A stretch of 64,000 nt of DNA from Nitrososphaerota archaeon (GCA_011605725.1 JAAOZP010000004.1:64001-128000); one strand, 5' to 3'; shown: positions 1-62,992, numbered from the stretch's first letter. Notes: generated from the letters alone by a model not told the origin. Program-made: numbers and translations.

Positions 1-109
1 TTACCACGGTGAACCAAGCGATTACGAGAGAATGAGGGATGAGGAGCTTGAAAAGAAGGTGCTGGATTTCTATGAGAAAAACCTTTCAACATATTTAATT
101 CTAATTTAG
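1..109 (+). CDS. 3' end of an unidentified gene running in from the left edge (…YHGEPSDYERMRDEELEKKVLDFYEKNLSTYLILI*)
   Basis: Open frame from position 2 to TAG 107-109; no family recognised. Confidence 0.35.
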   Translation, partial: YHGEPSDYERMRDEELEKKVLDFYEKNLSTYLILI

Positions 110-180
110 TGCGCATTATAATCAGACTATACATTAGCCAAGGATAAGACTATAGCGTGTGCACTAACCAGTGTTTATGA

Positions 181-449
181 TTAAGTTCCCACTTTTCCAG
201 CAACCTTTTTAATAATGTATAGTCCAACTATTAAACAGTAAATTATCAATTCCCAGCTTTCCATCATATACCGTCCGATTAGAATTAGCCCAGAGAAATA
301 TCCCAATTAATACAGTAAACCCCAATACTTCGCTCTTTCCAATTCGACAACTCCAATGATGATTAATAGGAAATTAATGAGTATTGCTAGGTTTCTGCCG
401 CTTTCGCCAAATAACGCTGGAAAAACTGAACTTAGCGCGCGCCTCCCAT
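181..449 (-). pseudogene. Small multi-TM membrane protein pseudogene
   Basis: Manual translation: ATG 449 is out of frame across GCGCGCGC 435-442, then SSVFPALFGESGRNLAILINFLLIIIGVVELERAKYWGLLY*LGYFSGLILIGRYMMESWELIIYCLIVGLYIIKKVAGKVGT*; internal TAA 307-309; TATA-like TTTTTAAG ~25-30 nt upstream. Confidence 0.55.
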
Positions 450-491
450 TTTCAACAAATAAATAAGAGGAAGCTTAAAAATTTTATGACA

Positions 492-2380
492 TTAACACAT
501 GCCAGATAATTTTGGGTTGTCCTTTTTTATGGAACCCAGCTTCTTACTGCGCCAAATCCTGCAGACGATTGTGGCTAAGGCGATTACAACAACTAATCCG
601 ATGATAAGGGGAACAAGAGGGGGATTAACTGTAATGATGAGCGTATTGCTTATGGCGTTTTCCCTGACATCGTCCCCGGAATACGAGGCCTGTACCTTCC
701 AAGATCCTGTAGTGTCAGTTGGATAGGAATCCTGAAAGTTGCCATCCGGATCAGTCAGTACATTTCGGGTTACTTTATCTCCATTTGGCTTAGTATAAGT
801 GATACTTACGGTAGCTGAAGCTATCTTAGGAGTAATTGCCCCCGAGATTCGGATTGATTCGCCGATCGTTATGGATTCGGATGGAGTTGAAATAACAATA
901 ATGGGTTGCATTTTCTCAACTAGAAATTTTATCTTTTCGCTAATACTTCCTTCATAACGATCGTTTCCTGTCCACGAGGCAACGACGTTCCACTCGCCAA
1001 CAGCATCGACTATAATAACATTAGAGAACCTTCCGTCAATGGTCGTCTTCGTTGTCGAATTGAACATAGATCCATCAGGCTTAACATAAGTTACGACTAT
1101 TGTCGCATTAGCTATGCTTGGGTCTAAGATGCCTGAAACAGTCTGCGACGAATTGAAAATAATAGGAGTTTTAGCGATCGATATGATGATAGAGCTGGTT
1201 CTCTTGAAGCATTGGATGACAACCAGATTACTCTCGCATCCTTCATAGTCCTGGTCCCCGGTCCAACATGCCTTTATGTAGACTGTTCCAACCGATTCAA
1301 GCTTCAGTTTAATCGAGAATCGGCCACTGGAGTCCGTTGTAGCATTATAGTTTAAACGATCAAACAGCAACGATGTGTCAGATTGATAAAACGAGATAAT
1401 AAGACCTGCTTTTGCAGGGTTGACGGATCCATTGAGCATGAATTCCTCTCCAATACGGACCTCGCTCTTGGTAGTCGTCAACGTTATTTGACTCTTTAAC
1501 CTTCTCTTGGCGATTGTCCAAGTAGTATAGAAGATATCGGCCACATCATTAACAGCATGAGAATAACAGATCTGAATAATAGAATTAAGCCTCGATTGAT
1601 CCACGGAAGGTGTGCCCGTACATGCTGGAGGATTGCATACTTTGCATGGACGATACCCTTTGTTATATGCATCACATTCATCGCAAACCATATCAGGTTT
1701 TCAGGCTTTATCTGCGAAACATAACGGCACCAAGGATAATGGTAAACATCGCTATTCTTGCTACCACAGTATTTTGCTCCTGAGCCGCTTGAACTGCTTC
1801 GATAGAAATTCGATATGTCATCGTAATACTGGTAAGCTGCGTTAGCAGTTTGTACCATACGTTGCCGTACGTCGGACACATTGGTTAGTCCATCGAAGTC
1901 ATATCTTATCGGCAGTAGTGAATCGGCATATGTTTCAAACTTGGAATGATAATTGTCTTCGTTAGGGTCTTTTGCACTCGTGTGTAAGGGGTTATCCAGG
2001 TCCATTATATAATGAGACAAGACGCCGAACTCAAAGGCTATATCGTCTTCCGAGGCGTTTTGTTTGATCATGTTCTTAATTAATGCGACCTCCTCAACTA
2101 TTTTATCTACGGCTTTACCATAATTCTCATCAACATGCCAAACGTGGTTCACAAAATCCTTAAACTGAGTATCGGGGGCAATAGCCCCTTCTAAATACTG
2201 TGCGATATTTCGCTCAAGGAGGTTCTTAAGGTCAGAGGGAAGATATTGGAGAATATCTCTTGCTATTTGCCTGTGTGTTTCATGCGCCCAAGGGCTTACC
2301 CTGATGGGTGAAACATCTGCCAGAAGAAATGCTATAAAAAGGACGATAACAATCCTCATTAGAACGCTATTACTCCTCAT
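492..2380 (-). pseudogene. Frameshifted surface-anchored protein: signal peptide + S1/P1 nuclease/Zn-dependent phospholipase C-like domain + Ada-type metal-binding domain + Ig-like repeats + C-terminal TM (~630 aa if joined)
   Basis: ORF 1496-2380 has W..ETH, PD, HY..D...PLH, HSKFE motifs and YCGSKNSDVYHYPWC; ORF 492-1691 continues CDECDAYNKGYRPCKVCNPP. One extra T at 1685-1687 joins them (…NLIWFCDECDAY…). Confidence 0.75.
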
Positions 2381-2608
2381 TCAACTCACAACCTCCGCAA
2401 TCACAATGAACGCAGACAAAGGTTCCATGGAAATGAACACCTCTTATGGACGGATCGGGTTTGAGACAAAGAACCATCTTGCCTCCGCATCTTGGACAGC
2501 TTATAACATCGCTGGCTGAAACCAGTTCCGCAAGCTTCTGATAACCTTTCGAATCTTAGGAACATCGATTGAGATGCAGAAGTCTGTTTGACCTACCGCC
2601 CTCTTCAT
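2370..2608 (-). pseudogene. Small CPxCG zinc-ribbon protein, split by a 1-nt frameshift
   Basis: MKRAVGQTDFCISIDVP(K) joined to DSKGYQKLAELVSASDVISCPRCGGKMVLCLKPDPSIRGVHFHGTFVCVHCDCGGCELNEE* by adding one A near 2556; overlaps the start of the next gene. Confidence 0.5.
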
Positions 2609-3521: not shown

Positions 3522-3709
3522 TATATTTTAAACTCGCACGGATGAAGCGCGCGATTGTTTTTCTCTTTCTTGTCTTTGACACCAGATCCGAGAATGAAAA
3601 CTTGAAATCCTGCTGAAAATCGCTGAAAAGGACCCATATCTTAATAGGGATTATTCCTTTGAAAGAAGGACAAAGAGTTTTAAAAAGGTTCTTTCAAAAT
3701 CATATAGAG

Positions 3710-4072: not shown

Positions 4073-4212
4073 ATCCCAAGCTCCTTACTAAATCCAGGAC
4101 GATGCAAGAGTCACTGAGGACTCTTGGTTTGAAATAGCGCGCGCTAACCTCTAGAGTTCTTTCCAGTGACATGCATGAGGTAAATAAGGCAGGCTCTCTC
4201 TTAGGGCACGCA

Positions 4213-5376: not shown

Positions 5377-5497
5377 GGTTACCCACGATATAAACTAATA
5401 ATGGCTAATTTAAAAAATTAATGCGCATGCACCGAAGCTAGTTGATTTTGCTTTTAAATTTTAAAATAAACCTTAAATGATATAAAGGTGAGCTAGA

Positions 5498-5725: not shown

Positions 5726-5805
5726 TACACGTCTATTAGCTTTAACAATAAGGGGACAGGGAGAATACAAAAAGTTAGAAAAGCGAACTAAAAACGCGCG
5801 TGCGC

Positions 5806-5979
5806 TCACTCTTCGTTCTGGTCGGGAAGATCCCAGTCAGGGTCAACCTTGACTTGGTCTAGAGCCTTCTCAAGCATTATGCGTTGCTCGATAGATGCAA
5901 CAAGCTTACGTGTAAACACTGCGGCATCAGGATTGATTGAAACAGAGTCGATTCCAGCCCTAACAAGAAACTCAGGGTA
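5806..5979 (-). pseudogene. ppsA: PEP synthase 3'-end fragment, copy B
   Basis: [57 protein letters not shown]; resembles the PEP-utilising enzyme C-terminus. Confidence 0.75.
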
Positions 5980-5983
5980 GCAA

Positions 5984-6837: not shown

Positions 6838-7032
6838 CTAATCCTCGTCAGGGTCAGGGAGGTCCCAGTTAGGGTCTGTTTTAACCTGGCCGAGGGCTTT
6901 CTCAAGCATAATCCTTTGCTCGATGGATGCGACTAGCTTGCAAGTGAAGACTGCAGCATCAGGATTTATAGAAACGGAGTCGATTCCAGCCCTAATGAGA
7001 AACTCTGTGAACTCAGGGTATACACTTGGAGC
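6838..7032 (-). pseudogene. ppsA: PEP synthase 3'-end fragment, copy A
   Basis: [64 protein letters not shown]; in frame directly after the TAG of 7033-8136, which falls where the Gln of GQAPS would be. Confidence 0.8.
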
Positions 7033-8136
7033 CTACTTGAACAGCTCAGGAAAGTCTTCCTTGAGGAACTCTATCTTCTCCAATGAGACCTCTTCCAGCC
7101 TCCTATGTCTCTTGTTTATTGCTACGACTATGTCATCCCTCTTGCGGAGCCCCTCCTCATCTATTTCCTCCTCATCCACTTTCCCAACGTGCTTGAGCTC
7201 CTTCTTCTCGAGCTTAACGAACTTGAGGCCCCTCTCCGTTTTCTTAGCGAGCCTGAGCCTATACCCATCCAGATTGTAAACCGCTGAATCGTCTGAGAGG
7301 TCATATTTTATTTGACGCTCGTACCGTCTCATCATCTCCGGGTCCTTCAATTCTATCGGCCACTTTACCATGTATCTCCACTTATGCATCTCGATGCTCC
7401 TCTTGGATTCCGGTATTGCAGTGCCCTCCCAGTATTCCCTCCTCTCCTCCCTCGCCAACCACTCTCTAAACCTTTTCTTAAACTCGATAACTGCCTCAGC
7501 CCTTTTAAGCACGTTATCAATAACCTCCTCATCGCTCATCCCGGATGAGTCGAATATGATCCTGTAGTGTGGATGATCAAGGTCGGTTATGAGCAGTTCC
7601 CCCAGATATCCGTGTTTAGAGAAGACCTCGTTGATAAGCTTTAGGAACACGTTCACATCCTTAACGAGGGCGGGCATGAACCTCGCGACCTTCATCCTGT
7701 CCTCCCTGTCCTCGAGGGCAAGTACGGAGAACCCCTTGAAGAAATCTTTATTCTTGATAGACCCGGGGGAAAAACAGAGATTATAGTGTACTCCACATAG
7801 GAATGATAAATCTACTTCATCATTCCTAATCGTGATTAAATCACTCTCTACATCCACAGCATCTATGAATGGGGAGCGTGGATCGATCCAGTCGTCCATC
7901 CATTTGATTCTCCTCCTCCATTTTGTATGCAACTCGCTGTCGTCGAAATAAACATCTTCGAGAAAAGCTTTAGTGTACATTTGGCCGAGCTCCCTCCCAT
8001 CCGGCAACTTAACGGGATATAGACCTTCAAAATTCATGTAACAGATATTTTCTCTGGTTTTGAATTCATAGCTACTTCTACCCTCCAACGCCCTTGCTAT
8101 CTTCGGGATAAGCGTCTTCCACCTCTCGCCATCCAT
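7033..8136 (-). CDS. Putative cognate immunity protein 1
   Basis: Starts 3 nt after the toxin stop; no signal peptide; paralogous to 46351-47145 (FDSSGMSDEEVIDNVLKRAEAV). Confidence 0.65.
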   Translation of the reverse strand: MDGERWKTLIPKIARALEGRSSYEFKTRENICYMNFEGLYPVKLPDGRELGQMYTKAFLEDVYFDDSELHTKWRRRIKWMDDWIDPRSPFIDAVDVESDLITIRNDEVDLSFLCGVHYNLCFSPGSIKNKDFFKGFSVLALEDREDRMKVARFMPALVKDVNVFLKLINEVFSKHGYLGELLITDLDHPHYRIIFDSSGMSDEEVIDNVLKRAEAVIEFKKRFREWLAREERREYWEGTAIPESKRSIEMHKWRYMVKWPIELKDPEMMRRYERQIKYDLSDDSAVYNLDGYRLRLAKKTERGLKFVKLEKKELKHVGKVDEEEIDEEGLRKRDDIVVAINKRHRRLEEVSLEKIEFLKEDFPELFK

Positions 8137-21917: not shown

Positions 21918-22111
21918 TGCTAAGTTTATGCATTTGAAACGTTTCTAACTGGAGAGTACACTCCATACTGTTGATGAAATATTTTTATGCTTAGACCTCT
22001 TGCTTAAAACCCGTGGCGAAGTGCGCCTACCGCGGGGAGAAGATAAGGGAGATTGAGGAGCGCGCGCGCTGATTTGCTCGCTCTATTTGCTCGTCAGAGC
22101 TTTTTCGGAAG

Positions 22112-23893
22112 CTAAGGTTTTTCGCCCGCAGGCTCCTCCTCAATCTTCTTCAACTGGCTCCTATACATCTCCAGAATCTCCTTCACCGTTGTCGCCTGCT
22201 CCGGAGCCTTATCGTCCCTAAGCCTACCTGTGTACTTGGGGAAGCGTCCCGCTAAGCCAGAACCAGCTCTTACCGCGTTTAACCCGCAGGTGTGCACGGG
22301 GCTCAGGGTTATTTCTGACGCTATTATCTCGATGACTATTCGTGGTTCAAACCATACGTCCGCCTCTATTTTCGAATCAACCCTGGGATGTTTATGGCTG
22401 ATCTTGTAGTTGTTCATCAACTCTGTGAAAGTAGCTAAATCCTCGTCGGTGAAGCCTGTTCCACATTTAGCAAACGTTCTGAAAACGTCTTCATCAGGAT
22501 CGTATGCAGCCAAGAGGTATGCTCCATACTTGCCTGCACGCTTGCCCCTGCCATGGAAACCGCCGACTATAACGAGGTCGAAGGTGTCGGCGACTTCAGC
22601 CTTATACTCTCTCTTCAGCTTTATCCAGCTCCATTCTCTAGCGCCAGCCCTGTATGGTGCTTTCAGGTCTTTCAACACGAGGCCCTCGCAGCCTTCTGAG
22701 ATCGCCTCCTCCATGAAGACCTCTATCTGGCTGGGGTCTCTCGATATTATCTGTTTGACGAGCTTAACCCTCTCGTCTTCTATGATAACGTTCTTTAAAG
22801 CCTCCCTTCTCTCCAAATACGGTTTCTCAGTGTAGTCGACGCCGTCGGCGTAGAGTAGGTCGAAGAAGAAGAGTGCAACAGGATACTCTTTCATAGCCTC
22901 TTCGATACCATACTTCCGCCTCCTGTGCATAAGCTCTTGGAACGGCAGCAGCTCGCTGGTGTCAGGGTTTATTGCTACGCATTCCGCCTCCAGGACAGCC
23001 TCCCTAGCCTTAACGTTCCTCCTCACCATTTCTATCGCGTCAGGGTAGTGGCTCGTAATATTTTCAAGCCTCCTGGAGAAGAGCAGAACACTATCATCGT
23101 TCTTGTGTATTTGCACACGCTCCCCGTCCAGCTTGTACTCAGCAGCAGCCTCTCCACCTATTTTCTCCAGCACCTCCTGCACTGTTGTCAAGCGTTCTGC
23201 AAGCATCGGCCTGATCGGTTTGCCCACGGTTATCTTGAAGTCGCGAACACCGTCAAGCCCCTTCTCGGCTATAGCCCTCGCCACAGCCCCGAGGTCGCTG
23301 GAAATGTTGTACGCACGCTCTATGATGGGCCTGTTCGACTTGTCCCCGGTGAATGCTTGCGCAATAGCGTCGAGAATAGTGTAGTCTGCTATACCGAGCC
23401 TAAGCCTCCCGGTGACGATCCTGACAGCATACTTCGCCTCCCTAGGAGACATGTCTATCAGGAGGGAGGATAGCAGGCTTGTCTTCTGCGTCACAGAACC
23501 CTTTCCCCCCAGCCTGGCAAGCCTGTAAAGCTTCTCGTAAACATCAGTCAGCGTCGGCTCCTTGCTTAAGAGCTTCTTCTGAACCTTTCTTTGCGCAAGG
23601 ATTTCGGCGGCGCTGCCTAGGTCGCCAGCCTCCTTGTAGAGTTTTTCAACAGTCTCATCATCTATTCCCGAGAATTCTGACAGGGATCTTAAAACAAGCT
23701 TCTCGGCGACGCCGAATTCTAAGCCCTCGTAGTCAGGCCTAACCTTGCCCTGGAGCAAGTATACGAGCTTCTCAAGCTCGGCTGGACTAGCTTTCTTGAA
23801 AAGGTCTACTAGAAGGCTTGTCATCTCAAGCCTCTTCGTCGTCGACTCCACCTGCTCCATCGCTTCTGCAACTTCCTTGAAAAGCATAACCAT
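22112..23893 (-). CDS. lig: ATP-dependent DNA ligase
   Basis: EYKLDGERVQIH (motif I), EGLVLK, WIKLK, RFP. Confidence 0.97.
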   Translation of the reverse strand: MVMLFKEVAEAMEQVESTTKRLEMTSLLVDLFKKASPAELEKLVYLLQGKVRPDYEGLEFGVAEKLVLRSLSEFSGIDDETVEKLYKEAGDLGSAAEILAQRKVQKKLLSKEPTLTDVYEKLYRLARLGGKGSVTQKTSLLSSLLIDMSPREAKYAVRIVTGRLRLGIADYTILDAIAQAFTGDKSNRPIIERAYNISSDLGAVARAIAEKGLDGVRDFKITVGKPIRPMLAERLTTVQEVLEKIGGEAAAEYKLDGERVQIHKNDDSVLLFSRRLENITSHYPDAIEMVRRNVKAREAVLEAECVAINPDTSELLPFQELMHRRRKYGIEEAMKEYPVALFFFDLLYADGVDYTEKPYLERREALKNVIIEDERVKLVKQIISRDPSQIEVFMEEAISEGCEGLVLKDLKAPYRAGAREWSWIKLKREYKAEVADTFDLVIVGGFHGRGKRAGKYGAYLLAAYDPDEDVFRTFAKCGTGFTDEDLATFTELMNNYKISHKHPRVDSKIEADVWFEPRIVIEIIASEITLSPVHTCGLNAVRAGSGLAGRFPKYTGRLRDDKAPEQATTVKEILEMYRSQLKKIEEEPAGEKP

Positions 23894-36730: not shown

Positions 36731-36948
36731 AAAAGTTTAACAGAAGCCTCCAGCAGGGTATTAATAAGGCTTATGCCAAGTTTGGAGAAACCCTTAGCAA
36801 CCCTTTTTCTCAACCTAAGAGCGTTAGCGCGCGAGCTTCTGAAGCCGAGGCTTTACGCTTTCAACCGCTTCTGCTGGTTCAGGCACGCTAACTATCTAAG
36901 CATGGACGATTCATACATTATTTTTAAAACAAGCGTGCTAGGAAGTGT

Positions 36949-37428
36949 GTGGGAATCCAGATGGCTAGAGGTGGAGGAGAAATCCGTAGAAGACTCATGG
37001 AACTGGTGGAGAAGTTCAGGGAAAAAGGTGCACTTAGCCCTGAGAAAGCTTTGACCGCCCAAGAGTTGGGGTTGCCACCCTGGTTTGAGCAGGCTATGCA
37101 TCGAAGACTCGGCCAGCTAGGGATATTTGTTGAAGTTAATGGCAAATACTATCTTGATGAGGATAGGCTCAGAAAAATACAAGAGAGATATTTTAAAACC
37201 GAATATGGAGGCAGGACGCATAGCTGGTCTCGTTACCTATGGGTTCTCTTGATGTTGCCCATTGGACTCATAGTTTCACTTGCAATCTTCTACCTCCTGG
37301 TCTTGAGTGGAGCTAGGTTTTTCCCAGGGGAATTCCTGATGATTTTAACTATTGTCATGGTTGTTGTAGCCGTAATAAGAATTCTCTACTGGAGGTCGAG
37401 AAGGAGATATTGGCCTGGACAATGGTGA
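36949..37428 (+). CDS. Membrane protein with N-terminal wHTH-like domain and two TMs
   Basis: FREKGALSPEKALTAQELGL…GKYYLDE, then two hydrophobic helices. Confidence 0.7.
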   Translation: MGIQMARGGGEIRRRLMELVEKFREKGALSPEKALTAQELGLPPWFEQAMHRRLGQLGIFVEVNGKYYLDEDRLRKIQERYFKTEYGGRTHSWSRYLWVLLMLPIGLIVSLAIFYLLVLSGARFFPGEFLMILTIVMVVVAVIRILYWRSRRRYWPGQW

Positions 37429-37706
37429 GGAGAACATCAAGAGCAGGAGGAGTATTTAAGTTTAGTTGGCTATAAATGGACAAAAATCCGGTTTAGTGGT
37501 GCTACTGCTTTGGAAACATATTTTAGTGGTGCCTCGGCTTTCCTGAACCCCCCAAAGTATCCAGATAGTAAAAGCGAGTATATTAATGGATATGTTCAAT
37601 TTGAATCTAACTTTATCCCTGATCCATAGGCGTGGCTTAAAAACCAAATTCTAAACTTCTTTTTAACGCACGCTAACCTTCATACCCTCGAGGAGGTTGA
37701 AAAGGC

Positions 37707-37871
37707 TTGAGGATAGGCAGGTGTGCTAGATGCGGAAGAGAGCTTAAGCGGGGGGAGCCTAGGATCAGGGTGATTCTGAAGAACGGCAGGGAGGTCAACA
37801 AGACCTATTGCATGAGATGCTTCGACAGGGTCTCCAGAATCCACAGAGGTAACATTAATAAGGAAAAGTAA
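37707..37871 (+). CDS. Small zinc-finger protein (54 aa), not in the ORF track
   Basis: MRIGRCARCGRELKRGEPRIRVILKNGREVNKTYCMRCFDRVSRIHRGNINKEK; AGGAGG ~10 nt upstream of TTG. Confidence 0.7.
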   Translation: MRIGRCARCGRELKRGEPRIRVILKNGREVNKTYCMRCFDRVSRIHRGNINKEK

Positions 37872-37889
37872 ACCATAATAAGGCTTAGG

Positions 37890-46277: not shown

Positions 46278-46350
46278 TAAGCAATCTAAACAGCGGATTA
46301 TTAATTTTACTGGAATAGTTCAGGTAACTAAAAAATAAGCGCGTCCCACT

Positions 46351-47145
46351 TCAATCCTCGAGTTTTTTGACGCTCTCCAGCTTCTTACGTAAATCGTTAA
46401 GATAGCGCTTGCTTATCCCAGGTACTCCGAGGCGTTGAGCTTCCCTAACAGCATCCGCTCTTTTCTTAATTTCTTCTAGCAACTTGTCCTCGCTCATGCC
46501 GCTGGAATTGAATGCTGAGTAGAAGAAATCCCAATCCTCGTGTGGCTTCAGATAATGCTTTACTTCAAAGCCATATTTTCCGCTGATTCTTTCAGCAATC
46601 TCCCTGACGTATTTTATGTAGAGCGCTATCATCCGCAACAGGCTTAGGGTCCTGCGTAAACGTTTATCCTCCATATCTATGCATTCTTCGAAATCCTTGC
46701 CCTCAGACAGACCCATTATGATCTCTTCGGTTTTCTCTATCCATTTCTGCACGAGCTCATCATACTTCTTCTTGTCTCCAATTTTTTCGGCTTCCTTTAG
46801 TTCCCTATCGAAAAGCGGTTGTATGGCCAAACTTATATGGAAATTTATATCGACCATGCCTTGTGAATATATCTCTATAGCTCCATTCTCATGGGCTTCG
46901 ATATAAGAAGAAAAGCCTAAGAGAGTCCAAGCGACCAGCATGCCTGAGCTGTCTTTCTTAGCCTCAATCCATGCCTCAAGGATTGCTCGTGGCGGCGAAC
47001 CCACCAGTCCTTCCTTTTCATATTTAACAAAACCCCCCTCTTCAAACTTCTTAAAGTCTTCCAATCTAACCTTTCCCTCAGACAGAAGCTCTACTAACCT
47101 TCTAAGGAATCCGATACTAAACTTTCCCTTAGTCACTTCATTCAT
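46351..47145 (-). CDS. Putative cognate immunity protein 2
   Basis: ATGA overlap with the nuclease ORF; FNSSGMSEDKLLEEIKKRADAV matches immunity protein 1. Confidence 0.65.
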   Translation of the reverse strand: MNEVTKGKFSIGFLRRLVELLSEGKVRLEDFKKFEEGGFVKYEKEGLVGSPPRAILEAWIEAKKDSSGMLVAWTLLGFSSYIEAHENGAIEIYSQGMVDINFHISLAIQPLFDRELKEAEKIGDKKKYDELVQKWIEKTEEIIMGLSEGKDFEECIDMEDKRLRRTLSLLRMIALYIKYVREIAERISGKYGFEVKHYLKPHEDWDFFYSAFNSSGMSEDKLLEEIKKRADAVREAQRLGVPGISKRYLNDLRKKLESVKKLED

Positions 47146-48185
47146 CCTCTCCTTGTTATCTCTATGTAAGGATTCTTATAATTACCAACACTTTCAGGCA
47201 TGCTTAAACCTTCCTCTGAAGATGACCATATGTCATAGTCGAGTACGAACAGGACACCATATCTTGCTGTCTCAGACTCCATAAGGAAATCCGTGAGCTT
47301 CTTTCTCCCTTTGTTAACCTGCAGGTCAAAAACTGTAGGATCATGAATCGCAGTGCCCTTAACCTCGACGATGGCAGTAACCTCGCCTTTCTTAAAAGGA
47401 TCCTCATATTTATCGGTTATATCCCATTTCGCTTCTATCTGAAAATCTGGACCCACATTGCCCGCCCAATTATGAAGCCTTCTCGCATCTACAGCATCCC
47501 TGGGAATTCCTGTCTCCTCACAGAATTTATTGAGGAGTAAATCCTTTTTTTTCTCTACCCATAATTCTACGACCTGCCCGATCAACTCAGTATTTTCAGG
47601 ATCGGACTTAAGCATATTAAGACAACCCGCAAGGTCGTTAACTGTATCCGCATACTTCAACACTTCTACGTAAGCTATTTTAGTCGCATCCTCGGGCACT
47701 TTGACCGTCAATCGAGGATTAAAGCAATATGCATACTTATATTCACCATATTTATCGACAAAGCACACTATTAGAACCAACCTCTCTTTGAACTCAACAT
47801 TTTTATCTACCTTCTCAAGCCCCTGAACATAATAGCCGCTTAGAAAGATACGCTCTTTCAAACCTATGTCTTGATGTCCCTCGACGTTGCTAACGTCGTC
47901 AGCTATTTCTAATCTTTGAGGAACAATTATGTCTCTTCCGACAATACATGTAAACACATTTATATCATTTCCCATCCGATACTCAATAATCCATCGTCCC
48001 TTGTATACTTTAATACTACTAATAGGATGCGCTATAGGCTTATGCACGTACACTCTTCCGTCTTCATAAAAGGTGAAGATAATTGGTTCGCCATAAATAT
48101 CCTTAGCTCCTGTTACCACATCAAGAGCAGCCCCCCTCTCAGAGTTTCTAAGGTTCCAAGATTCCACCGGGATTTCGTTTAACAT
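47142..48185 (-). CDS. C-terminal portion of toxin 2 with PD-(D/E)xK nuclease-like domain
   Basis: IGQVVE…GPDFQI…IVEVKGT…YGVLFV; frame stays open upstream (YNKIKAYDESDR) to the (GC)5 tract. Confidence 0.7.
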   Translation of the reverse strand: MLNEIPVESWNLRNSERGAALDVVTGAKDIYGEPIIFTFYEDGRVYVHKPIAHPISSIKVYKGRWIIEYRMGNDINVFTCIVGRDIIVPQRLEIADDVSNVEGHQDIGLKERIFLSGYYVQGLEKVDKNVEFKERLVLIVCFVDKYGEYKYAYCFNPRLTVKVPEDATKIAYVEVLKYADTVNDLAGCLNMLKSDPENTELIGQVVELWVEKKKDLLLNKFCEETGIPRDAVDARRLHNWAGNVGPDFQIEAKWDITDKYEDPFKKGEVTAIVEVKGTAIHDPTVFDLQVNKGRKKLTDFLMESETARYGVLFVLDYDIWSSSEEGLSMPESVGNYKNPYIEITRRG

Positions 48186-48207
48186 CCTATCAGATTCATC
48201 GTATGCC

Positions 48208-51200
48208 TTAATCTTGTTGTAGCGCGCGCGCTAATATTCCTTCAGCACAATCTTTAGGCATCCAGAATTGACTCGACTTCGTATCCTTTCTAAATGAGAA
48301 TTCTACGACTCCTTTCTTACCCCCATACTCCCAATAGATCTTCGCCTTATATATCCCAGGTCCAACATCATTTCCTTTCCCCAAGCTCAACATAGCTCCA
48401 TCTCCCTTTTCCAACGTAACTTCACGTAACCTTTCCCAAGATACTTTATAATATTCTATACTACTTATCTTAGCTACTAGTTTATCTAGCACATCAGGAT
48501 TCTCGAGAACAGTAGTTAAGAAAATACCAGCAACATTTTCATCATACTTACCTTTAATGTCGAAATAGTTATCAATAATTTTCCCTATTTTAATCCCAAC
48601 TCCTTTCCTTGCATCTCCTTTTATCATTATCAGAATTTCATCTAGGGCTTTTATCTTGTCAGGGTCTTTTGTATTCTTGTTAAGCCAATTGTTCAAAGAT
48701 TCTATTGCATCGTCACCATCCTTAATCCACATCGAAACTATACTCCTTACGATTATCCCACCTTTTCCCTGAAACTCTTCTAGAGAATAATGCTTTATGA
48801 TCGTGCTAATTGCATTTAGTATCCTGCCTGAGCTTTCTACACTCGGAACGTTTTCTAAAGTGTGTTTTGAGATTTCCGAAGCTGTTTCAAGGATATCTTC
48901 AATCTTTGAAGGATTGTTTATTCTCTTTATTAGATCTCCAACGACGTCTCCGAACTTTCTGCTGTACTTATTCCCAAGTAAAAGGTCAACAACCTTGTGG
49001 AACGATGGCTTTAGCCTCAGCACCAATACATCAAATATTGCTGGGGTTATCCAGTTCCAAATCCCCCTGCCTACGATTCTGAGCACGTCCTCAACGCTAA
49101 GCGGCTTGCCTCCTGCTTTCTCAGCCCTTATCCTGTTGACCACCGCGTAGAAGGTAGTGACATATGCTGCGCAACTAACTATCGCTCCGACAACCCTTCC
49201 AGTGGCGTATCCGATTCTATAATCCCTATCTTTCGTCGAAGGAGGTTCCTTCAACCCGAAGGCTATTCTTATCTCATCCCATGAGACGTCTAGAGCCAGG
49301 TCTGAGAGCACGTTGGAGAGGAGGTTATCGTTAATATCCTTGGCTTCTAGCCTGAATATTTGGGAAAGCTCGAACAGCTCGTTAGCATGCTGGGCCATGC
49401 CGATTTCATTGAACTCCTTGCTCCTGCCCTCGCAGACATCTGCAATTTCGTTAAACGAGTCCATTGCAGCCAACGCGTTGTGGACATCTGTCCAGATTTC
49501 AGCTATGTTCATCGCTATACCAGTGGCGAGGATTGCTGGCGATGCTGCTACAGCCCACTTAGGCGGGAGAACGAAGCCGACAACAATCATTATTCCGCAA
49601 GTAACTATTATCCCCCATCCCTTTGAGACGAAGCCGTCCCAGAAGCCCCTCCAGAACATAGGCAGCTCGCCACTTCTAAAGCTCGCTTGAAGAGTTGCAA
49701 CAACCCTACCCCCGTGCTTCAAGTTAATGAAGATCGGATATTCTGCATCTTCCTCAAGTTGGACTAGGTGTAATGGGATCGAGCCGAATGCTGGAACGCT
49801 AATAGCATGCTCCTCCGGAATTCTCGCCGGCCCAGCGAAGACCTCTAGCTCATATTCCGCGTTGCATGCAGCATAGTTTCTTATCAATACCCCTTGTACT
49901 AAATCGCCCCCGCCATATGCAAGAGGATGGTAAATGAGTTCTATCTCTTTTCCATGCGAGCCTCTTGTCGCTGCTTTATCCAAGTCCCACCTAGTCTCTC
50001 CGGTATCCTCGTATTTGTAATCGTGGTCTTCCCACCCATTGTACTTTAGCCATTCATAGAATTCACCATTAACCGTTATGACTTCGCTCTGGTTCAGCAC
50101 CTCTTCCTTTAGCAGCTTAACCTCGTAATTGGAAGGTATCTTGCTTGGCTCAAGCCTATCATCCTCCAGGATACCGAGTAGCTTCTTAACCTCATCCTCA
50201 TGGAGTATTCTCTCATAGAGGAAACCTGGCTTGACATCGATCAACGCATATCTAACGTTCAGCGTCTTAGTCATTTTCGAGATATCGCTGACATTCTCAA
50301 TTGTCGATGTGAAACCATCAGGCGAAATAGGGATCAGCTCTACTCCATTGAAATCTTGGAGATACCCCGGCGCCATATCCGTCGTCATGAAGTATAACTT
50401 AACATGCGTAGCCCCTTGGTACCCTGGTACGAAGACCCTCTTGGTCTCATTGTAGCCCTCAACGTTTACAACATAAGTTCTCCATTCCTCCGGGGCAACG
50501 AAGCTCATGGTTGAGATCGTTGTTAACGCTGTGGATATGTATCTCTTTCCTTCTTCATCACAATAGACTGCTGTGATGTTGAGCTTGGCGATGGGAGAAA
50601 GGAGCTTCGTTAATATATTCTTCGACCATAAGCCAACGATGGCTCCGATTTCCAGCTCCTTTCTATCAACGTCTCCAGTTATGAGCAGCTTGACGTCTCT
50701 CGCCTTCCGTCCTCCCTTATTGAGAAGGGTTATTGTGAGGTTTGCGTACTTCGCTATCACTTGGCTTGAAAGCTTAACCTCAAGCCTCGGAGGCTCAGGT
50801 AGAACCTCTATGGTGTAGGTTACGGTCTTCCCCCCGTTCCAGAACACTAAATCCAAGTTGCCCGGCTGAACAACAGCAAAATAGACCGTAATCTTGTAAA
50901 CCCCAGGTTTCTTGGCTTTCAGGTAAAGCGGAGCGATGCGTGTAGGGCTTGGGAGTGGAGCCCATGTCTCAAACGCGTCACTATCGGAGAACCTAACACC
51001 CAGCAAGATTTCGTAGCTTCCTCGGATCTCCTGAGGATTCCTTATTTGGGCTGTTATCGTTATCGTATCACCGATCCCAACTTTGGTTGATGAGATTGTT
51101 GTATCAACTATTATTGGGTCGTAGGCTGGGAGGAGAACCCTGAACTCGCTTATTTGAGATTGCATGGCTTCGCGTGTTTCCTCAAAGTGACTCGGGACTG

Positions 51201-51879
51201 CGATGAGAAAATTTTCAGCAAAGTAGCCTTGGCTCAGGTTTGAGAATAGCCCTATTTTCATCCTAGCGGTCTTGTTAAGTATTTTACCGGTCTCTAGATC
51301 GATGAGGGTGAAGGTGTATGAATCAGGGTCGATGTGCCTGACTAAGTATGTCCTCTTCTTAGGATACCTATGAAGAATGTGGAAGACATTAGTTCCATTG
51401 CTTTCATATTTTATAGAGCTTACATCTTCCTCACTTCCATCCTTACCAATTGCCTTATAGGAGATTTCTACGGAGACGCTTCCATCGCTGCCTCTACGAA
51501 TATAGATTTTCTCATACTCGGGGATTATCGTGTAATCCTTAAGATCATAGTCTATTCGAGTCGGTAGCTTCAGAGTATTGTTAGCACTTTTTATGGTTCG
51601 ACGTATCTCCTCTTCTAAGCTTCCAATGGAAACCAGTTGAGCTATGAAGAACCAGAGCCTCTGCGCAAGCTCAACGGGAAAGCCCTCAGGCACTATGAAG
51701 CATGCCTCGGTTATCGAGCTGCTCGGCACCTTCCCCTTCCTTAATTCCTCCTCTATGAACTTTAATGCTGTTAGAGCATCCGTTTCCTCCGTGGCGTATG
51801 CCCTAAGGGTTAGAGCAGCGCTGAAGTTGGAGGTTAATATCAGGATTGCCAGGATTGCGGCTGATGCTTTCCTAAGCAT
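48208..51879 (-). CDS. Toxin 2 N-terminal/trunk portion (1223 aa): signal peptide, Ig/CARDB-like domains, hydrophobic hairpin; frame-separated from its nuclease domain
   Basis: Signal peptide; trunk aligns by eye with 8140-13239 (FWRGFWDG, GRVVGAI, WITPAIFD, YFDI). Confidence 0.75.
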   Translation of the reverse strand: MLRKASAAILAILILTSNFSAALTLRAYATEETDALTALKFIEEELRKGKVPSSSITEACFIVPEGFPVELAQRLWFFIAQLVSIGSLEEEIRRTIKSANNTLKLPTRIDYDLKDYTIIPEYEKIYIRRGSDGSVSVEISYKAIGKDGSEEDVSSIKYESNGTNVFHILHRYPKKRTYLVRHIDPDSYTFTLIDLETGKILNKTARMKIGLFSNLSQGYFAENFLIAVPSHFEETREAMQSQISEFRVLLPAYDPIIVDTTISSTKVGIGDTITITAQIRNPQEIRGSYEILLGVRFSDSDAFETWAPLPSPTRIAPLYLKAKKPGVYKITVYFAVVQPGNLDLVFWNGGKTVTYTIEVLPEPPRLEVKLSSQVIAKYANLTITLLNKGGRKARDVKLLITGDVDRKELEIGAIVGLWSKNILTKLLSPIAKLNITAVYCDEEGKRYISTALTTISTMSFVAPEEWRTYVVNVEGYNETKRVFVPGYQGATHVKLYFMTTDMAPGYLQDFNGVELIPISPDGFTSTIENVSDISKMTKTLNVRYALIDVKPGFLYERILHEDEVKKLLGILEDDRLEPSKIPSNYEVKLLKEEVLNQSEVITVNGEFYEWLKYNGWEDHDYKYEDTGETRWDLDKAATRGSHGKEIELIYHPLAYGGGDLVQGVLIRNYAACNAEYELEVFAGPARIPEEHAISVPAFGSIPLHLVQLEEDAEYPIFINLKHGGRVVATLQASFRSGELPMFWRGFWDGFVSKGWGIIVTCGIMIVVGFVLPPKWAVAASPAILATGIAMNIAEIWTDVHNALAAMDSFNEIADVCEGRSKEFNEIGMAQHANELFELSQIFRLEAKDINDNLLSNVLSDLALDVSWDEIRIAFGLKEPPSTKDRDYRIGYATGRVVGAIVSCAAYVTTFYAVVNRIRAEKAGGKPLSVEDVLRIVGRGIWNWITPAIFDVLVLRLKPSFHKVVDLLLGNKYSRKFGDVVGDLIKRINNPSKIEDILETASEISKHTLENVPSVESSGRILNAISTIIKHYSLEEFQGKGGIIVRSIVSMWIKDGDDAIESLNNWLNKNTKDPDKIKALDEILIMIKGDARKGVGIKIGKIIDNYFDIKGKYDENVAGIFLTTVLENPDVLDKLVAKISSIEYYKVSWERLREVTLEKGDGAMLSLGKGNDVGPGIYKAKIYWEYGGKKGVVEFSFRKDTKSSQFWMPKDCAEGILARALQQD

Positions 51880-52912
51880 TCCCTTCGCCTCCCGGCTTAC
51901 CTAGGGTTCTCCATCTCAGGAGTATGATGAGCAATGAGACCGTTGAGACAGCCAACGAAGATGCTAAGAGCCTCATGATGCTTAATTCTTCAGCAAGCCT
52001 TTCATTTTCCCTAGTCTTCTCTGAAACCATCTCCTGGTATTCTTTGAGAGAGACCCTTAGAAGAGCCGTGGTATTCTTCTCTATCTCCAGCTTATCCCTT
52101 GATGCTCTTAGCTCAACCTCGGAACTATTCAACATAATCCGAAGCCGCTCATTCTCCTCCTTCGACTCAAGGTGTTTTGAGAATGGGTTTCGTCGAGCTC
52201 AATAATCAGCGTCGCCGTTAGATTCGGTGCTTTGATGCTTAGCAAGAGCTTAGCCGGCTCCTTAAGCCCAGAGAACCTTGACCACTCAATTCTCGTTTCG
52301 TACAGTCCCTTCTCGCATACAACCTTACAATCCTCGATTAGAGATTCCACTCGGAGCGTTGCCCCCACCTCAACGCTATTGCATGGAGCGATTATTTTGA
52401 AGGAGATTTTTAGAGCATCTTCATCTATGAAGATAGAATTCGGAACTATCTCGATGAAATCAATAACCTCTTCGCCTTCAACCTTTATCATCGCCTGTCC
52501 CTCTTTGAAACTTCTTACCCCCTGTCTATAGCAGTCTATCAAGAAGCAGTTACCCGAAATAGTGTCGTTATCCACGGCTATCCAGAGCTGAGTCCCATTA
52601 AAGTCGAGCATGGGGTAAACGCAGACGTAGAAATCGCCCCTTATGGTTACGTTGGGCGCGCGCGGGGCGGGTAGCGTTTAATGGCCAGTTTACTGGGAGA
52701 AATGGGCGAATAAAGATCACTGCAAACGTTAAGAGGAATGGCGATGCTTCGGCGTAAATTTCGTTTACCAGCGGGTAAACACTATTTACCTTCGAGCAAA
52801 CAACATTTACCTTCAGTGGGCATTTGTCTACGTGCCCAGCGACTCCACGCATCTTTGAAACGGCTTTAATGGCTAAAAGGAAGATGCACAATGCTTTCCA
52901 TGGCCTAGCCAC
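51872..52912 (-). pseudogene. Secreted coiled-coil, C-terminally TM-anchored protein broken into three ORFs
   Basis: Breaks at GCGCGCGC 52656-52663 and at the A-run 52188-52190; an added A gives …IIELDENPFSKHLESKEENERLRIMLN…; overlaps the start of the toxin gene. Confidence 0.6.
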
Positions 52913-53339
52913 TATGCTAGTGTGCTCTAATAATTATAATTACTGATTCTGAAATCCTTTATCACATTGTTTATCAGATTTTTAGTACTCATAACCACCC
53001 GGGTTCTAAGAATTATAAAAACGTTAATTACTACATGGACCAGTGCGCACGGCAGCCCTGTTTTTAGCACATAGAGTCACCACTTTCCAGCTCGGGGAGT
53101 AACTTTAATCAGCCATATCGCCAGAGAGTTTTTTAGCGTATGCTCTGCAAAATGAGTAGGCTAGTGTTCCAGACAGATATTGATACATTCTGCAAGAGAG
53201 TTCCAAGAAGCATTTTTGGCGAGATACAGATTTCATCCCGGAGAAACTAAAAGAAATCTAATGATAAAAGCCGACATTAAGGTTTGGTTTTAAACTAAAG
53301 CAAAATGTCACATAACAGGAGACATAACGCTTGCTTCTA

Positions 53340-53375
53340 AGGGTAAACCTTTATCACGGGCATAGCTTAACCCTC
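53340..53375. repeat. Right 36-bp direct repeat
   Basis: agggtaaacctttatcacgggcatagcttaaccctc; contains the pheS stop and an aborted pheT start (MPVIKVYP*). Confidence 0.92.
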
Positions 53376-61117: not shown

Positions 61118-61118
61118 A

Positions 61119-62174
61119 CTAGGCTTTCAACACGCGGTAGCCAGCTGCTTTCCTAAGCCTGTTCTGTATAGCCATGCCTATGCCTTCTTCAGGAAAGCCT
61201 TCAGCAATTATAATGTCCGGGTTCATCCTGTCAAGGCTCCTCAGCGCCGAGTAGATTCTTCTCGCCACAAGGTCAAGCCTATTCCTTGGGGCCAGCACTT
61301 CCACTATGATTCCCCTAGGCAATCGTCTGGCAGTCTCCTCTGAAACCATGCATCCCACTTTTAAACCTGATTTAAGGTATTCCTCGACGGTTTCAATTAT
61401 TTTTTCAATCTTCCTCTCATAATCGTCTCCTTCCACAACAATCATATCCGCTCTTGGAGCATAATGCCTATACTTCATGCCGGGAGAAGCAGGAACTCCT
61501 TCGAGGACACCGGACAATATGGAAGGATGCACTTCAACATCGCCAAGGTATTTTCTTAGGATATCGAGAGGAATCGGGCCAGGCCTGAGTATGACACACC
61601 TGTCCTCAGACACTTGGATGACAGTCGATTCAACCCCTATGAATGTTTCGCCAGCGTCAATTATCATGTCTATCGAGCCGTTTAAATCCTCATACACGTC
61701 TCTAGCGTTAGTCGGACTAGGCCTGCCTGAAAGATTAGCGCTGGGAGCAGCTATTGGAGAACCCAAGTGTTCGATCAACCCTAACGCAACATTGTGAGCA
61801 GGCATTCTTACAGCAACCGTTTCAAGACCAGCTGACACGGCTGAGGGAACCTTCTGAGATTTAGGAACAACTATTGTCAACGGGCCTGGCCAGAGTTCCC
61901 TGATAAGTTTCTCAGCTTTCTTTGGGACGCTGGTTGAAACCTCGTTAAGCATCTCCATGCTCGAGATATGCACTATAACAGGGTTGTCTGGAGGCCTTTT
62001 CTTGGCGGCAAATATCTTTAGAACAGCATTCTGGTTGAAAGCGTCAGCCCCAAGCCCGTAGACTGTTTCCGTTGGGAAGGCTACGAGCCCGCCTGACTTA
62101 AGAACTGCAGCTGCCTCCTGAAGCACCTTTTTGGAGGGACGATGCTTATCCGTCTTAAGAATCCTTGTCAACAA
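61119..62174 (-). CDS. sua5: L-threonylcarbamoyladenylate synthase
   Basis: FPTETVYGLG, KKRPPDNP, APSANLSG, PGMKYRHYAP. Confidence 0.96.
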   Translation of the reverse strand: MLTRILKTDKHRPSKKVLQEAAAVLKSGGLVAFPTETVYGLGADAFNQNAVLKIFAAKKRPPDNPVIVHISSMEMLNEVSTSVPKKAEKLIRELWPGPLTIVVPKSQKVPSAVSAGLETVAVRMPAHNVALGLIEHLGSPIAAPSANLSGRPSPTNARDVYEDLNGSIDMIIDAGETFIGVESTVIQVSEDRCVILRPGPIPLDILRKYLGDVEVHPSILSGVLEGVPASPGMKYRHYAPRADMIVVEGDDYERKIEKIIETVEEYLKSGLKVGCMVSEETARRLPRGIIVEVLAPRNRLDLVARRIYSALRSLDRMNPDIIIAEGFPEEGIGMAIQNRLRKAAGYRVLKA

Positions 62175-62292
62175 CCAGCACTATACGTATAGGTAAGCCG
62201 GTTAATAACGTTTTTCACTAAACTTTTCCTGAAAGCTCTTGAAGACGAGAACAGGAAGGAATAATAAGTGGTAAACAGGTATTTAGCTGTAA

Positions 62293-62838
62293 ATGCGTGT
62301 CGAGATTGTTAGCCTTACGGATGAAAACTTAGCTGAAGCCCCGGAACGGGGGGAGCATCCTTTCAGCTGCAAGTATTGTCTATACTGGGAGCTTGAAGAG
62401 TTTTCCGACTCTTCTAGGGAAAGCAGGGGAGACATGCTGGCTAGGAAGCTCAACTGGCTGAGAAGAGTTGGAAAAACGTTTGGCGAATGCGGAAAGATAG
62501 TTTATGTAGATGGAAAACCAGTGGGCTACGCGCAGTATGCTCCTCCCAGCATGCTTCCTCTCTCAGCCAAGTACCCATCTGGACCGCCCAGTGGGGACGC
62601 GGTGTTGATCTCATGCCTTTTCATCGCTCAGAAGGAATACAGGAGGCGTGGGCTCGGAAAACAGCTTTTGCAAACCATAATTGAAGATTTGAGAAAGAAG
62701 GGAGTCAAGGCTGTTGAAACCTTTGCTGGAAAGAATAATCCTAGCAACCCGTCTGGACCGGTGGAGTTTTACCTTAAAAACGGGTTTAAGATTCACAGGG
62801 ATGACTCGGAGTACCCATTGATGAGGCTCGAACTATAG
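62293..62838 (+). CDS. GNAT acetyltransferase
   Basis: PVGYAQY, ISCLFI, RRRGLG, FYLKNGF. Confidence 0.88.
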   Translation: MRVEIVSLTDENLAEAPERGEHPFSCKYCLYWELEEFSDSSRESRGDMLARKLNWLRRVGKTFGECGKIVYVDGKPVGYAQYAPPSMLPLSAKYPSGPPSGDAVLISCLFIAQKEYRRRGLGKQLLQTIIEDLRKKGVKAVETFAGKNNPSNPSGPVEFYLKNGFKIHRDDSEYPLMRLEL

Positions 62839-62992
62839 TGTGAAAGGCGTTTCCCACGAGGATAATTAACCATTTTCAACTCCAGCATGTTGAGACTTTT
62901 CAGGGCAGGCAGGGTTTTTAGAGCGCGCGCGCTTTAAAAGGCTTATGTTTAAATTCAGCTTTAAAGCCAACAACGTAGCCGGCGTAAACCGA

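Follow-up and report, generated by a model that had tools for sequence, protein, structure and literature searches.

Short A(GC)nT palindromes as probable scars of chromosome break-and-rejoin events in a hot-spring archaeon

Known end-joining fillers comprise N-nucleotides added by TdT, Pol mu and Pol lambda, templated insertions made by Pol theta, and those of the bacterial Ku-LigD system. Telomerase, which is a reverse transcriptase and copies a proven RNA template, also heals breaks and leaves interstitial telomeric insertions. Among short repeats, the yeast mitochondrial GC clusters and the REP/REPIN sequences (associated with RAYT transposases) are imperfect palindromes of 20-50 nt or longer with conserved flanks. 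REP/RAYT or MITE elements are in general palindromes, or carry TIRs, of at least 20 nt, with conserved flanking bases and many near-identical copies, and the integron attC, located at cassette ends, spans 57-140 bp as an imperfect inverted repeat whose R and L boxes are conserved. HIP1 (GCGATCGC) of cyanobacteria is frequent inside genes, and we know of no HIP1 at indel joints. Primases of the AEP superfamily are recognized by the catalytic DxD, an SGxGxH motif and a downstream D. According to the abstract of a recent report, PriSL(X) of Saccharolobus islandicus carries out primase-mediated microhomology end joining in double-strand break repair, generating small indels, and this AEP primase has terminal-transfer, strand-annealing and extension activities (PMC12019639).

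How most archaea, which lack Ku, rejoin double-strand breaks is an open question, and a joining route whose scars are fixed and readable would bear on it. In the literature on archaeal intergenic tracts we found no description of break repair with a fixed self-pairing filler. Here we describe tracts that probably have this origin, starting from a window (the whole stretch of 64,000 nucleotides that was analysed) of a hot-spring archaeon of the Brockarchaeota with a 2.2-Mb genome (G000).

Sequence and frequency of the tracts

The core motif was a compact palindrome of 10-12 bases, (T)A-(GC)4-5-T(A). AGCGCGCGCT had 88 copies genome-wide, against 0.9 expected in 2.2 Mb, and GCGCGCGC was found at 229 sites, against about 8 expected. 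Even though 87% of the genome is coding, 135 of the 189 runs of (GC)>=4 (71%) were intergenic, and GC-rich purine-pyrimidine (RY) runs amounted to 306 per Mb inside gene interiors vs 1196 outside. A profile of 153 tracts with 25 nt on each side had A at -1 in 130 and T at +1 in 129, as well as T at -2 and A at +2, but no conservation beyond +/-2 nt. A MITE, REP or attC identity was discarded, as only 10-12 bp were conserved and no longer repeat surrounded these 153 tracts; a scan of the window against Rfam gave zero family matches.

Copies of A(GC)nT numbered 59 for n=3, 88 for n=4, 20 for n=5 and 2 for n=6, while n=2 (AGCGCT) was not enriched genome-wide. This distribution implies a defined length instead of a microsatellite ladder, and it ruled out microsatellite slippage. 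The tract sequence is therefore fixed, self-complementary and of preferred length. Independent assemblies from other springs contained 16-118 copies each, excluding an assembly artefact.

The original prediction described these elements as alternating purine-pyrimidine tracts, an appearance that arises because tract variants differ by transitions only: among one-mismatch variants, transitions were enriched 9.6-fold and transversions 1.2-fold. Once written, a tract is inherited and decays by transitions, as illustrated by the orthologous tracts at C7:216095, one transition apart (GCGCGCGC vs GCGCGCAC). The excess of RY runs over a shuffle followed the same trend, with 163 vs 10 for runs without transitions from pure (GC)n and 161 vs 78 for those with one, whereas runs with two or more were at background frequency. 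In the window, seven nearly pure GC alternating runs of at least 8 nt compared with 2.3 +/- 1.5 in 200 dinucleotide-preserving shuffles. Enrichment was thus confirmed for runs with zero or one transition, and for those alone.

The list of tracts first drawn up for the window was accurate in its positions but over-inclusive. Six pure (GC)>=4 runs were present (435-442, 4137-4144, 22060-22069, 48222-48231, 52656-52664 and 62923-62932). Since runs with at least two transitions are at background, those at 106-115, 153-168, 5421-5431 and 53134-53144 are individually inseparable from chance, and those at 3547-3553 and 46338-46344 are too short to count as tracts. Moreover, the latter is not a homology break, as alignments of five relatives span 46338.

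Tracts at joints, in the window and genome-wide

The sister species G002 (about 85% identity) allowed us to look at the alleles opposite the tracts. About one fifth of the tract sites were comparable, as flanks were colinear at 21% of tract sites vs 42% of control sites, and some breakpoints are imprecise because G002 is about 15% diverged. At 22 of the 40 tract sites with both flanks colinear (55%), G002 had at least 50 bp of extra DNA, with a range of 50-5,600 bp. When only intergenic sites were considered, the proportion was 17/29 (59%) vs 77/630 random intergenic positions (12%; odds ratio 10, p = 1e-8). The presence of a tract in place of the relatives' extra DNA, more often than in the control, supports a filler at rejoined breaks. 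For 17 of these 22 sites, one or both breakpoints fell inside a G002 frame open for at least 25 codons on both sides, and what G000 had lost was ordinary coding DNA that ran on into the flanks. The G002 long alleles had a tract at neither end of the lost segment, and in the comparison with G002, L050 and L053 it was absent from both parental flanks at 48222 and 52656 of the window and at about 20 further sites genome-wide; the tract is missing from the unbroken allele and lies exactly at the joint. Minimal fillers ranged from GCGCGC to AGCGCGCGCGCT; in some cases A, AG or AGC came from the parental flank, which agrees with priming in register. These results agree with the original prediction in its proposal of a filler from an undescribed end-joining process.

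The reciprocal test was weaker: of 23 G002 tracts that could be compared, only 4 stood opposite at least 50 bp of extra G000 DNA, and most were small replacements or insertions. The proposal that the tracts are Z-DNA fragile sites was mostly unsupported, because the tract was missing from the unbroken allele at about 20 sites; re-breakage at old tracts is possible, since two or three shared tracts (C3:27550, C20:56303) adjoin a further indel.

The features of the window are as follows; no strand applies except where one is given.

434..442: A(GC)4 followed by C instead of T, a pure (GC)4 run downstream of an Ig-domain gene
4136..4145: perfect copy of A(GC)4T, between accessory genes
5794..5805: ACGCGCGTGCGC, one transition from pure alternating C/G; 10-bp insertion
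22059..22070: A(GC)5T at a synteny break, 60 bp past the end of DNA ligase homology
22112..23893, minus strand: ATP-dependent DNA ligase gene; its allele is an import from the genus's other clade
36774..37875: 1.1-kb insertion containing two small ORFs; 12-bp direct repeat TAATAAGGCTTA at 36762-36773 and 37876-37887
36823..36833: ttaGCGCGCGag, decayed or short tract within the 1.1-kb insertion; the G002 alignment stops at 36816, 7 bp before
36883..36892: gGCACGCta, decayed tract; homology to G002 contig C15 begins at 36895, just after
37666..37675: ttaACGCACGCta, decayed tract within the 1.1-kb insertion, differing from (CG)4 by two transitions
46278..53339: 7-kb inserted element that contains a multi-copy 1223-aa ORF; 36-bp direct repeat at 46242-46277 and 53340-53375
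48221..48232: A(GC)5T filler at a deletion joint, replacing about 125 bp (end of the 1223-aa ORF and the following spacer)
52656..52664: (GC)4.5 filler at a deletion joint, replacing about 570 bp
53043..53051: GTGCGCACG, probable old tract, conserved in G002, L050 and L053
53134..53144: ttaGCGTATGCt, possible old tract, three transitions from (GC)4; weak alone
62922..62933: A(GC)5T, small replacement (tttttagaGCGCGCGCGCtttaaaagg in G000 vs ttttttagcgttggttttaaaagg in G002)

Four tracts (at 435, 22060, 48222 and 52656) had been proposed to coincide with broken frames. Two of them are deletion joints. At 48221..48232 the relatives' alignments stop at 48220 and resume at 48233, G002 (L047), L050 and L053 keeping 125-127 bp between flanks that are 97-99% identical. 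At 52656..52664 six alignments stop at 52656, G002, L050 and L053 hold 504-570 bp, and the left breakpoint lies within a 409-codon open frame of G002. A third, at 22060, adjoins a synteny break and an imported gene. With the clade B ligase (G013 / L002), that of G000 shared 96% protein identity and 87-93% DNA identity, but DNA identity to the ligase of its own clade was only 75-82%; this pattern reverses upstream of about 24000. In all relatives the ligase is followed by a CDC48-like gene, which in G000 lies 132 kb off, at C4:218096, adjoining a decayed tract (ttaGCGTGCACtag). A 132-kb inversion at 22060 is only putative, since the genes flanking its partner site had no homologue in the sequences compared.

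Between the tracts at 53043..53051 and 53134..53144 lies a 79-bp piece (53050 to 53128) with homology to G002 contig C5. The tract at 37666..37675 is aligned across in the 99.4% strain locus L055, and alone it is inseparable from chance. For the genes neighbouring the tract at 4136..4145, the relatives have the homologues on separate contigs.

Some indels have no tract, given that it was missing at the ends of the 1.1-kb and 7-kb insertions and at one of the two strain-level joints checked. The 1.1-kb insertion is absent from G008, G007, G006 and G016, each with a single copy of the repeat. The 7-kb element, whose 36-bp repeat overlaps the start of a minus-strand gene, is present in G002 and absent from G008, G007 and G006, and different cargo occupies its site in G016 and in strain L055.

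Alternative origins and a possible mechanism

Taken together, we consider that A(GC)4-5T tracts are scars, that is, short new DNA at points where the chromosome was broken and rejoined, whether by deletion, small replacement, the import of foreign DNA or rearrangement; we assign this reading a probability of roughly 0.78. An alternative is a tiny mobile palindrome that inserts alone, with later recombination between two copies deleting the DNA and leaving one at the joint. Pure tract insertions of 7-10 bp exist (C3:21960, C7:23089 and 5795 in the window), copy number varies greatly among species of one genus, tracts cluster in accessory DNA, and two shared tracts have further indels alongside. 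However, stand-alone insertions accounted for about 5 of the 40 comparable sites vs 22 deletion joints, the long alleles of G002 are free of tracts at both ends of the lost segment, there is no conserved flank to serve a transposase, and we know of no means by which a 10-bp element could move, all of which makes this origin improbable. The excision footprint of a cut-and-paste transposon with inverted terminal repeats ending in AGCGC, which sometimes lost adjacent DNA, would also be palindromic and of roughly fixed length, and the outer T (-2) and A (+2) could represent a TA target duplication; but an element with such ends was not seen, the tract surroundings share nothing and the long alleles, being uninterrupted coding DNA, contain no element, so we regard it as highly improbable.

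We also deem it very unlikely that the tract is a selected functional site (for binding of a dimeric protein, as part of a promoter or terminator, or as a Z-DNA signal) whose link to indels is indirect, through a shared intergenic preference. The perfect palindrome, its strongly intergenic location and the RY alternation kept by its variants would fit such a role; nevertheless, tracts had no preferred distance to gene starts or stops (range -40 to over 1000 nt), were found in all four gene arrangements, are lacking in close species and are rarely conserved at orthologous sites, and the matched random intergenic control removes the argument that both are simply intergenic. Finally, the tracts had been proposed to be core sites of a recombinase for cassette capture. 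One or two of them lie in nearly every spacer of the accessory region at 1-6 kb, whose genes have scattered homologues in relatives. Yet integron-like core sites are scarcely credible, as at most 12 bp are conserved, without attC-like length and structure, the two clear insertions of the window are bounded by direct repeats of their own, and tracts sit in truncated genes or interrupt continuous homology. The last is evident at 5794..5805, which abuts the stop codon of a multi-copy minus-strand gene: its paralogue at C4:38491-38262 has homology to either side of the tract but not the 10 bp themselves, and in nine further copies of the gene homology begins at 5808.

For the scar reading, the structure of the tract suggests how it might be produced. 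A short tail reading A-G-C-G-C... would extend each broken 3' end; as (GC)n self-pairs, two such tails could anneal regardless of the flanking sequence, and gap filling and sealing would then yield the palindrome A(GC)nT. Short tails that overlapped fully should give AGCGCT, which is not enriched, so this model leaves the tail length or the joining step unaccounted for. In its complete version, a dedicated primase-family enzyme, possibly guided by a small RNA of its own, would write a self-complementary A(GC)n tail on any broken end, and unrelated ends would pair and be sealed, constituting a sequence-writing, telomerase-like archaeal end-joining pathway that drives deletion, gene import and mosaic accessory regions. 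We consider this version unlikely as a whole, although with an appreciable chance of being right.

Candidate enzyme and comparison with known systems

The best candidate for the writer of the tails, and only a lead judged from its sequence, is the following gene.

C7:378918-379793: primase-like (AEP) protein of 292 aa, directly after radA

The protein matched PF01896 with 31.5 bits, its alignment to the PriS structure 1v33 supports its membership in the AEP superfamily, and its catalytic residues (DxD, H and D) are retained, in the invariant columns D124, D126, H180 and D232. In clade A of the genus the gene is intact in genomes with 118, 88, 70 and 18 tract copies and broken in those with 33, 32 and 6, and it was absent from the search results in those with 16 and 3. 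In clade B, whose genomes have 0-3 copies, it was not found. The candidate is no more than a lead because it tracks tract abundance within the genus and not across the phylum, and the association is confounded by phylogeny. In a profile search of 401 phylum genomes (E <= 1e-6), mostly canonical PriS was matched; strong members of the candidate's family were limited to this genus and G023, and none was found in the tract-rich G389, G105, G395 and G363. Two of these, G389 and G395, have a LigD-Pol gene followed by a putative Ku frame, so read from its sequence. In G000 (93% complete), neither Ku (PF02735), which classical NHEJ (Ku plus LigD) requires, nor the Prim-Pol family PF09250 was found.

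As for a possible RNA template, a 9-bp hairpin with two compensatory pairs lies 3' of the candidate's paralogue copies, and the sole template-matching string beside it is AGCGCU, formed by the last codons and the stop codon. The intact candidate of G000 does not have the conserved 3' hairpin of these paralogue fragments; downstream of it, in both G000 and G002, is a HEPN-MNT gene pair, with no tract and no hairpin. In G023, represented by 400 kb only, the homologue is 31% identical, (CG)4 and ACGCGCGC were in weak excess, and no template was pinpointed in the gene end.

If true, the scars would keep a natural record, across the whole genome, of where DNA was once broken, deleted or imported; in G000 this record includes the exchange of a DNA ligase gene and the truncation of surface-protein genes. 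The way in which mosaic accessory regions are assembled would be explained as well. The scars would further indicate an enzyme able to add a defined, self-pairing sequence to DNA ends, of mechanistic and biotechnological interest, and its predicted product (A(GC)n tails or AGCGCGCGCT joints) is specific and hence testable.

Like the fillers of known end-joining systems, the tracts are nucleotides foreign to either parental flank, placed exactly at deletion or rearrangement joints; however, those fillers are random or copied from nearby, whereas the tract is one fixed self-complementary sequence of preferred length at hundreds of sites. The resemblance to telomerase lies in a defined short repeat that is placed on broken ends and can become chromosome-internal, although telomerase caps one end with a repeat that is not self-complementary and the tracts would join two. 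As short GC-rich palindromes in AT-richer spacers with a lineage-specific copy number, they recall the GC clusters and REP/REPIN, which insert without replacing DNA, whereas the 10-12-nt tract mostly replaces lost DNA. HIP1 is likewise a highly iterated short palindrome, but the tracts avoid gene interiors and mark joints. With PriSL(X) of S. islandicus the candidate shares a PriS-like AEP nature and adjoins radA, but it is a separate 292-aa paralogue known from sequence and not the replicative primase, and the abstract on PriSL(X) does not mention a fixed filler (PMC12019639).

A short GC palindrome in excess across the genome

The window corresponds to G000:C4:64001-128000, part of an archaeal genome (G000) of 2.23 Mb and 46% GC; its DNA ligase has relatives in MAGs from hot springs, which carry the label Candidatus Brockarchaeota or Thermoproteota. 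The original prediction had listed alternating purine-pyrimidine (RY) tracts at boundaries and gene breaks, and every one of them was found where it had been placed. Six are pure GC runs, and the remaining ones either lie 1-3 transitions from (GC)n or are short.

435, 4137, 22060, 48222, 52656 and 62923: pure (GC)4-5 runs (n = 6)

Genome-wide, RY runs at 0-1 transition from pure (GC)n exceeded the background of a dinucleotide shuffle (163 vs. 10 and 161 vs. 78), and runs with more changes than one transition were at background level. The window itself held 7 nearly pure GC runs, compared with 2.3 +/- 1.5 in the shuffles. As the excess was present only at 0-1 transition, several listed tracts (106-115, 153-168, 3547-3553, 5421-5431, 46338-46344 and 53134-53144) are indistinguishable from chance; the excess is real, and the observation was thus real yet over-inclusive.

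GCGCGCGC was found at 229 sites genome-wide, where an order-3 Markov model predicts ~8, and AGCGCGCGCT in 88 copies in the G000 genome, against 0.9 expected. When the flanks of 153 runs were profiled, A occupied position -1 in 130 and T position +1 in 129, with a weaker preference for T at -2 and A at +2 and no information beyond these positions; because of these preferences, the tract unit is the palindrome (T)A(GC)nT(A). The copy number of A(GC)nT was 59 for n=3, 88 for n=4, 20 for n=5 and 2 for n=6, without enrichment at n=2, and this preferred length ruled out a slippage ladder as the origin of the tracts. Among one-mismatch variants, transitions were enriched 9.6-fold and transversions 1.2-fold, which explains the purine-pyrimidine alternation originally noticed. 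Regarding placement, coding sequence makes up 87% of the genome and 135 of 189 runs lay outside it, between genes; all gene arrangements were represented, and no fixed spacing from gene starts or stops was detected. The 8-mers AAAGGCTT/AAGCCTTT and related ones were also over-represented genome-wide; they are located in spacers upstream of genes and probably belong to the local consensus of promoters.

Tracts and the unbroken alleles of relatives

The comparison comprised orthologous stretches of five species of the genus, with ~85% identity to the window over 34-54 kb, plus 1.67 Mb of the sister species G002. In place of AGCGCGCGCGCT at 48221-48232, G002 and the loci L050 and L053 carried 125-127 bp, and on either side the flank aligned at 97-99% as far as the tract; in place of the run at 52656-52664 the same three sequences had 504-570 bp. 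We considered a site comparable when both 200-bp flanks were colinear in G002, and 40 of the 189 G000 runs qualified. At 22 of these (55%), the tract's place was taken in G002 by additional, unrelated DNA of 50-5,650 bp. For intergenic runs the proportion was 17/29, versus 12% in a control set of 630 comparable positions drawn at random from intergenic DNA, an odds ratio of 10 (p = 1e-8). Colinear flanks were found at 21% of tract sites and 42% of controls, as expected if many tracts join non-neighbouring DNA. In 17 of the 22 cases, at least one breakpoint interrupted a reading frame of G002 that stays open for 25 codons or more in either direction, so the short, tract-bearing state is the derived one.

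Minimal fillers ranged from GCGCGC to AGCGCGCGCGCT when ambiguous bases were assigned to the flanks, and A, AG or AGC of the tract sometimes came from the parental flank. Pure 7-10-bp insertions were a minority of sites (C3:21960 and C7:23089). Within the window, the tract at 5794-5805 was missing from a paralogue homologous on both sides. A few tracts were common to G000 and G002 and some of these were one transition apart, implying that they are inherited and decaying. The reciprocal test was weaker, since only 4 of 23 comparable G002 tracts faced at least 50 bp of extra G000 DNA and most were small replacements or insertions.

Insertions, the ligase locus and the origin of the tracts

Several larger features of the window were delimited in the same comparison or observed beside it:

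492-2380, minus strand: zinc phospholipase C-like ORF (1496-2380) and Ig-domain ORF (492-1691), with an overlap of ~200 nt, each in its own frame
5808-5973 and 6839-7140: short gene families, multi-copy in G000 and relatives, with copies often truncated at tracts
8140-18902, minus strand: two giant ORFs (1699 and 1888 aa) next to each other, in a stretch with elevated GC (50-55%) and a strongly negative GC skew
22112-24000: DNA ligase gene
36774-37875: 1.1-kb insertion flanked by copies of the 12-bp direct repeat TAATAAGGCTTA (36762-36773 and 37876-37887), not by tracts
46278-53339: 7-kb insertion bounded by a 36-bp direct repeat (46242-46277 and 53340-53375), not by tracts

Two ORFs lie in the 1.1-kb insert, one for a membrane protein and a small one with CxxC...CxxC. 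The 36-bp repeat overlaps the start of a minus-strand gene, and the 7-kb site holds other cargo in the genome G016 and in the 99.5% identical strain L055, which gives it the look of an integration hot spot. In L055, tAGCGCGCTt lies directly at one joint of this site; no tract was found at the other joint or at a 2.3-kb indel. Tracts were present inside both insertions, and several homology blocks began or ended within ~12 bp of tracts. The genes at 1-8 kb were without a syntenic counterpart, their homologues being scattered and multi-copy in relatives. Regions of the short gene families also hold small toxin-antitoxin-like genes, as judged by eye. The overlapping ORFs at 492-2380 probably represent a single surface-protein gene split by a frameshift, and the position of the shift has no tract.

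Homology to every relative's ligase locus ends 60 bp short of the tract at 22060-22069, and the CDC48-like gene that follows the ligase in relatives is 132 kb away in G000, adjoining a decayed tract. By a marker nearby, G000 belongs to clade A, the large-genome clade of its genus (protein identity of 89-92%, vs. 74-76% to clade B), with which the genes beside the ligase also group. The ligase showed 96% protein identity (to G013) and 87-93% DNA identity to clade B, with a DNA identity of only 75-82% to clade A, the clade affinity switching at a crossover near 24000. These identities mark the ligase gene as a foreign allele, imported from clade B.

Three origins had been proposed for the tracts. 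The data fit (GC)n filler from end-joining, with the tract absent from the unbroken allele and located at joints. A recombinase core site for cassette capture was rejected: structure is confined to 12 bp, the actual insertions are bounded by different repeats, and tracts interrupt stretches of continuous homology as well as truncated genes. The absence of the tract from the unbroken allele speaks mostly against a pre-existing Z-DNA fragile site, although two to three shared tracts do have a further indel alongside. An assembly artefact was excluded by the 16-118 copies in independent assemblies from other sites and by inheritance with point changes. In the mechanism we propose for this filler, A(GC)n would be added as a tail to each 3' end; two such tails would pair, (GC)n being self-complementary, and the joint would then be filled and sealed. 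A weak point of this tail-pairing proposal is that AGCGCT, the product expected from complete overlap of short tails, was not enriched.

A primase-like gene as candidate writer

Matches to PF01896 in G000 comprised the canonical PriS and a second, 292-aa protein (C7:378918-379793) that keeps the catalytic residues of archaeo-eukaryotic primases (AEP). Its gene immediately follows radA, in the order radA, primase-like AEP, HEPN and MNT nucleotidyltransferase (L158, C7:377877-380755).

State of the primase-like gene in clade A genomes, with tract copies in brackets
Intact: G016 (118), G000 (88), G002 (70), G006 (18)
Interrupted by stop codons: G007 (32), G012 (6)
Fragment only: G008 (33)
Not found: G009 (16), G010 (3)

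In clade B the gene was not found and tract copies were 0-3. The way gene state tracks tract abundance within the genus is suggestive, in a small sample of phylogenetically non-independent genomes. Among 401 genomes of the phylum, strong members of the family occurred only in this genus and in G023; none was found in the tract-rich genomes G389 and G395 (family f15) or G105 and G363 (family f28), and G142, also of family f15, had only a fragment with three stop codons. Taken together, we regard this gene as a tentative lead to the tract writer. In G389 (L189, C92) and G395 (L190, C7), which belong to another family, a LigD-Pol gene is immediately followed by a Ku-like frame, read by eye, that would make a bacterial-style NHEJ pair in archaea; no Ku gene was found in G000.

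A second, truncated AEP copy in G000 (C12:18403-18857) is preceded by a AGCGCGCGCT tract (18264-18273) and followed by a conserved hairpin (C12:18860-18925). This hairpin, found after paralogue copies of the primase-like gene, has a 9-bp stem conserved in five sequences, with two compensatory pairs and none broken. The sole tract-like string beside it is AGCGCU, that is, the last two codons plus the stop codon of the gene, and no hairpin follows the intact G000 copy. In 400 kb of G023 (L191-L210), whose homologue is only 31% identical, no convincing template was found; (CG)4 and ACGCGCGC were in weak excess (4-7-fold; for example, ACGCGCGCGCGT twice) and may represent the scar in a shifted phase, as A(CG)nT. 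The idea of an RNA template for the writer stays speculative, and we give it a low probability.

No paper describing such tracts was found in the literature searched, where the phenomenon appears undescribed. The nearest published process is the primase-mediated microhomology end joining of Saccharolobus (PMC12019639), whose abstract does not mention a fixed filler.
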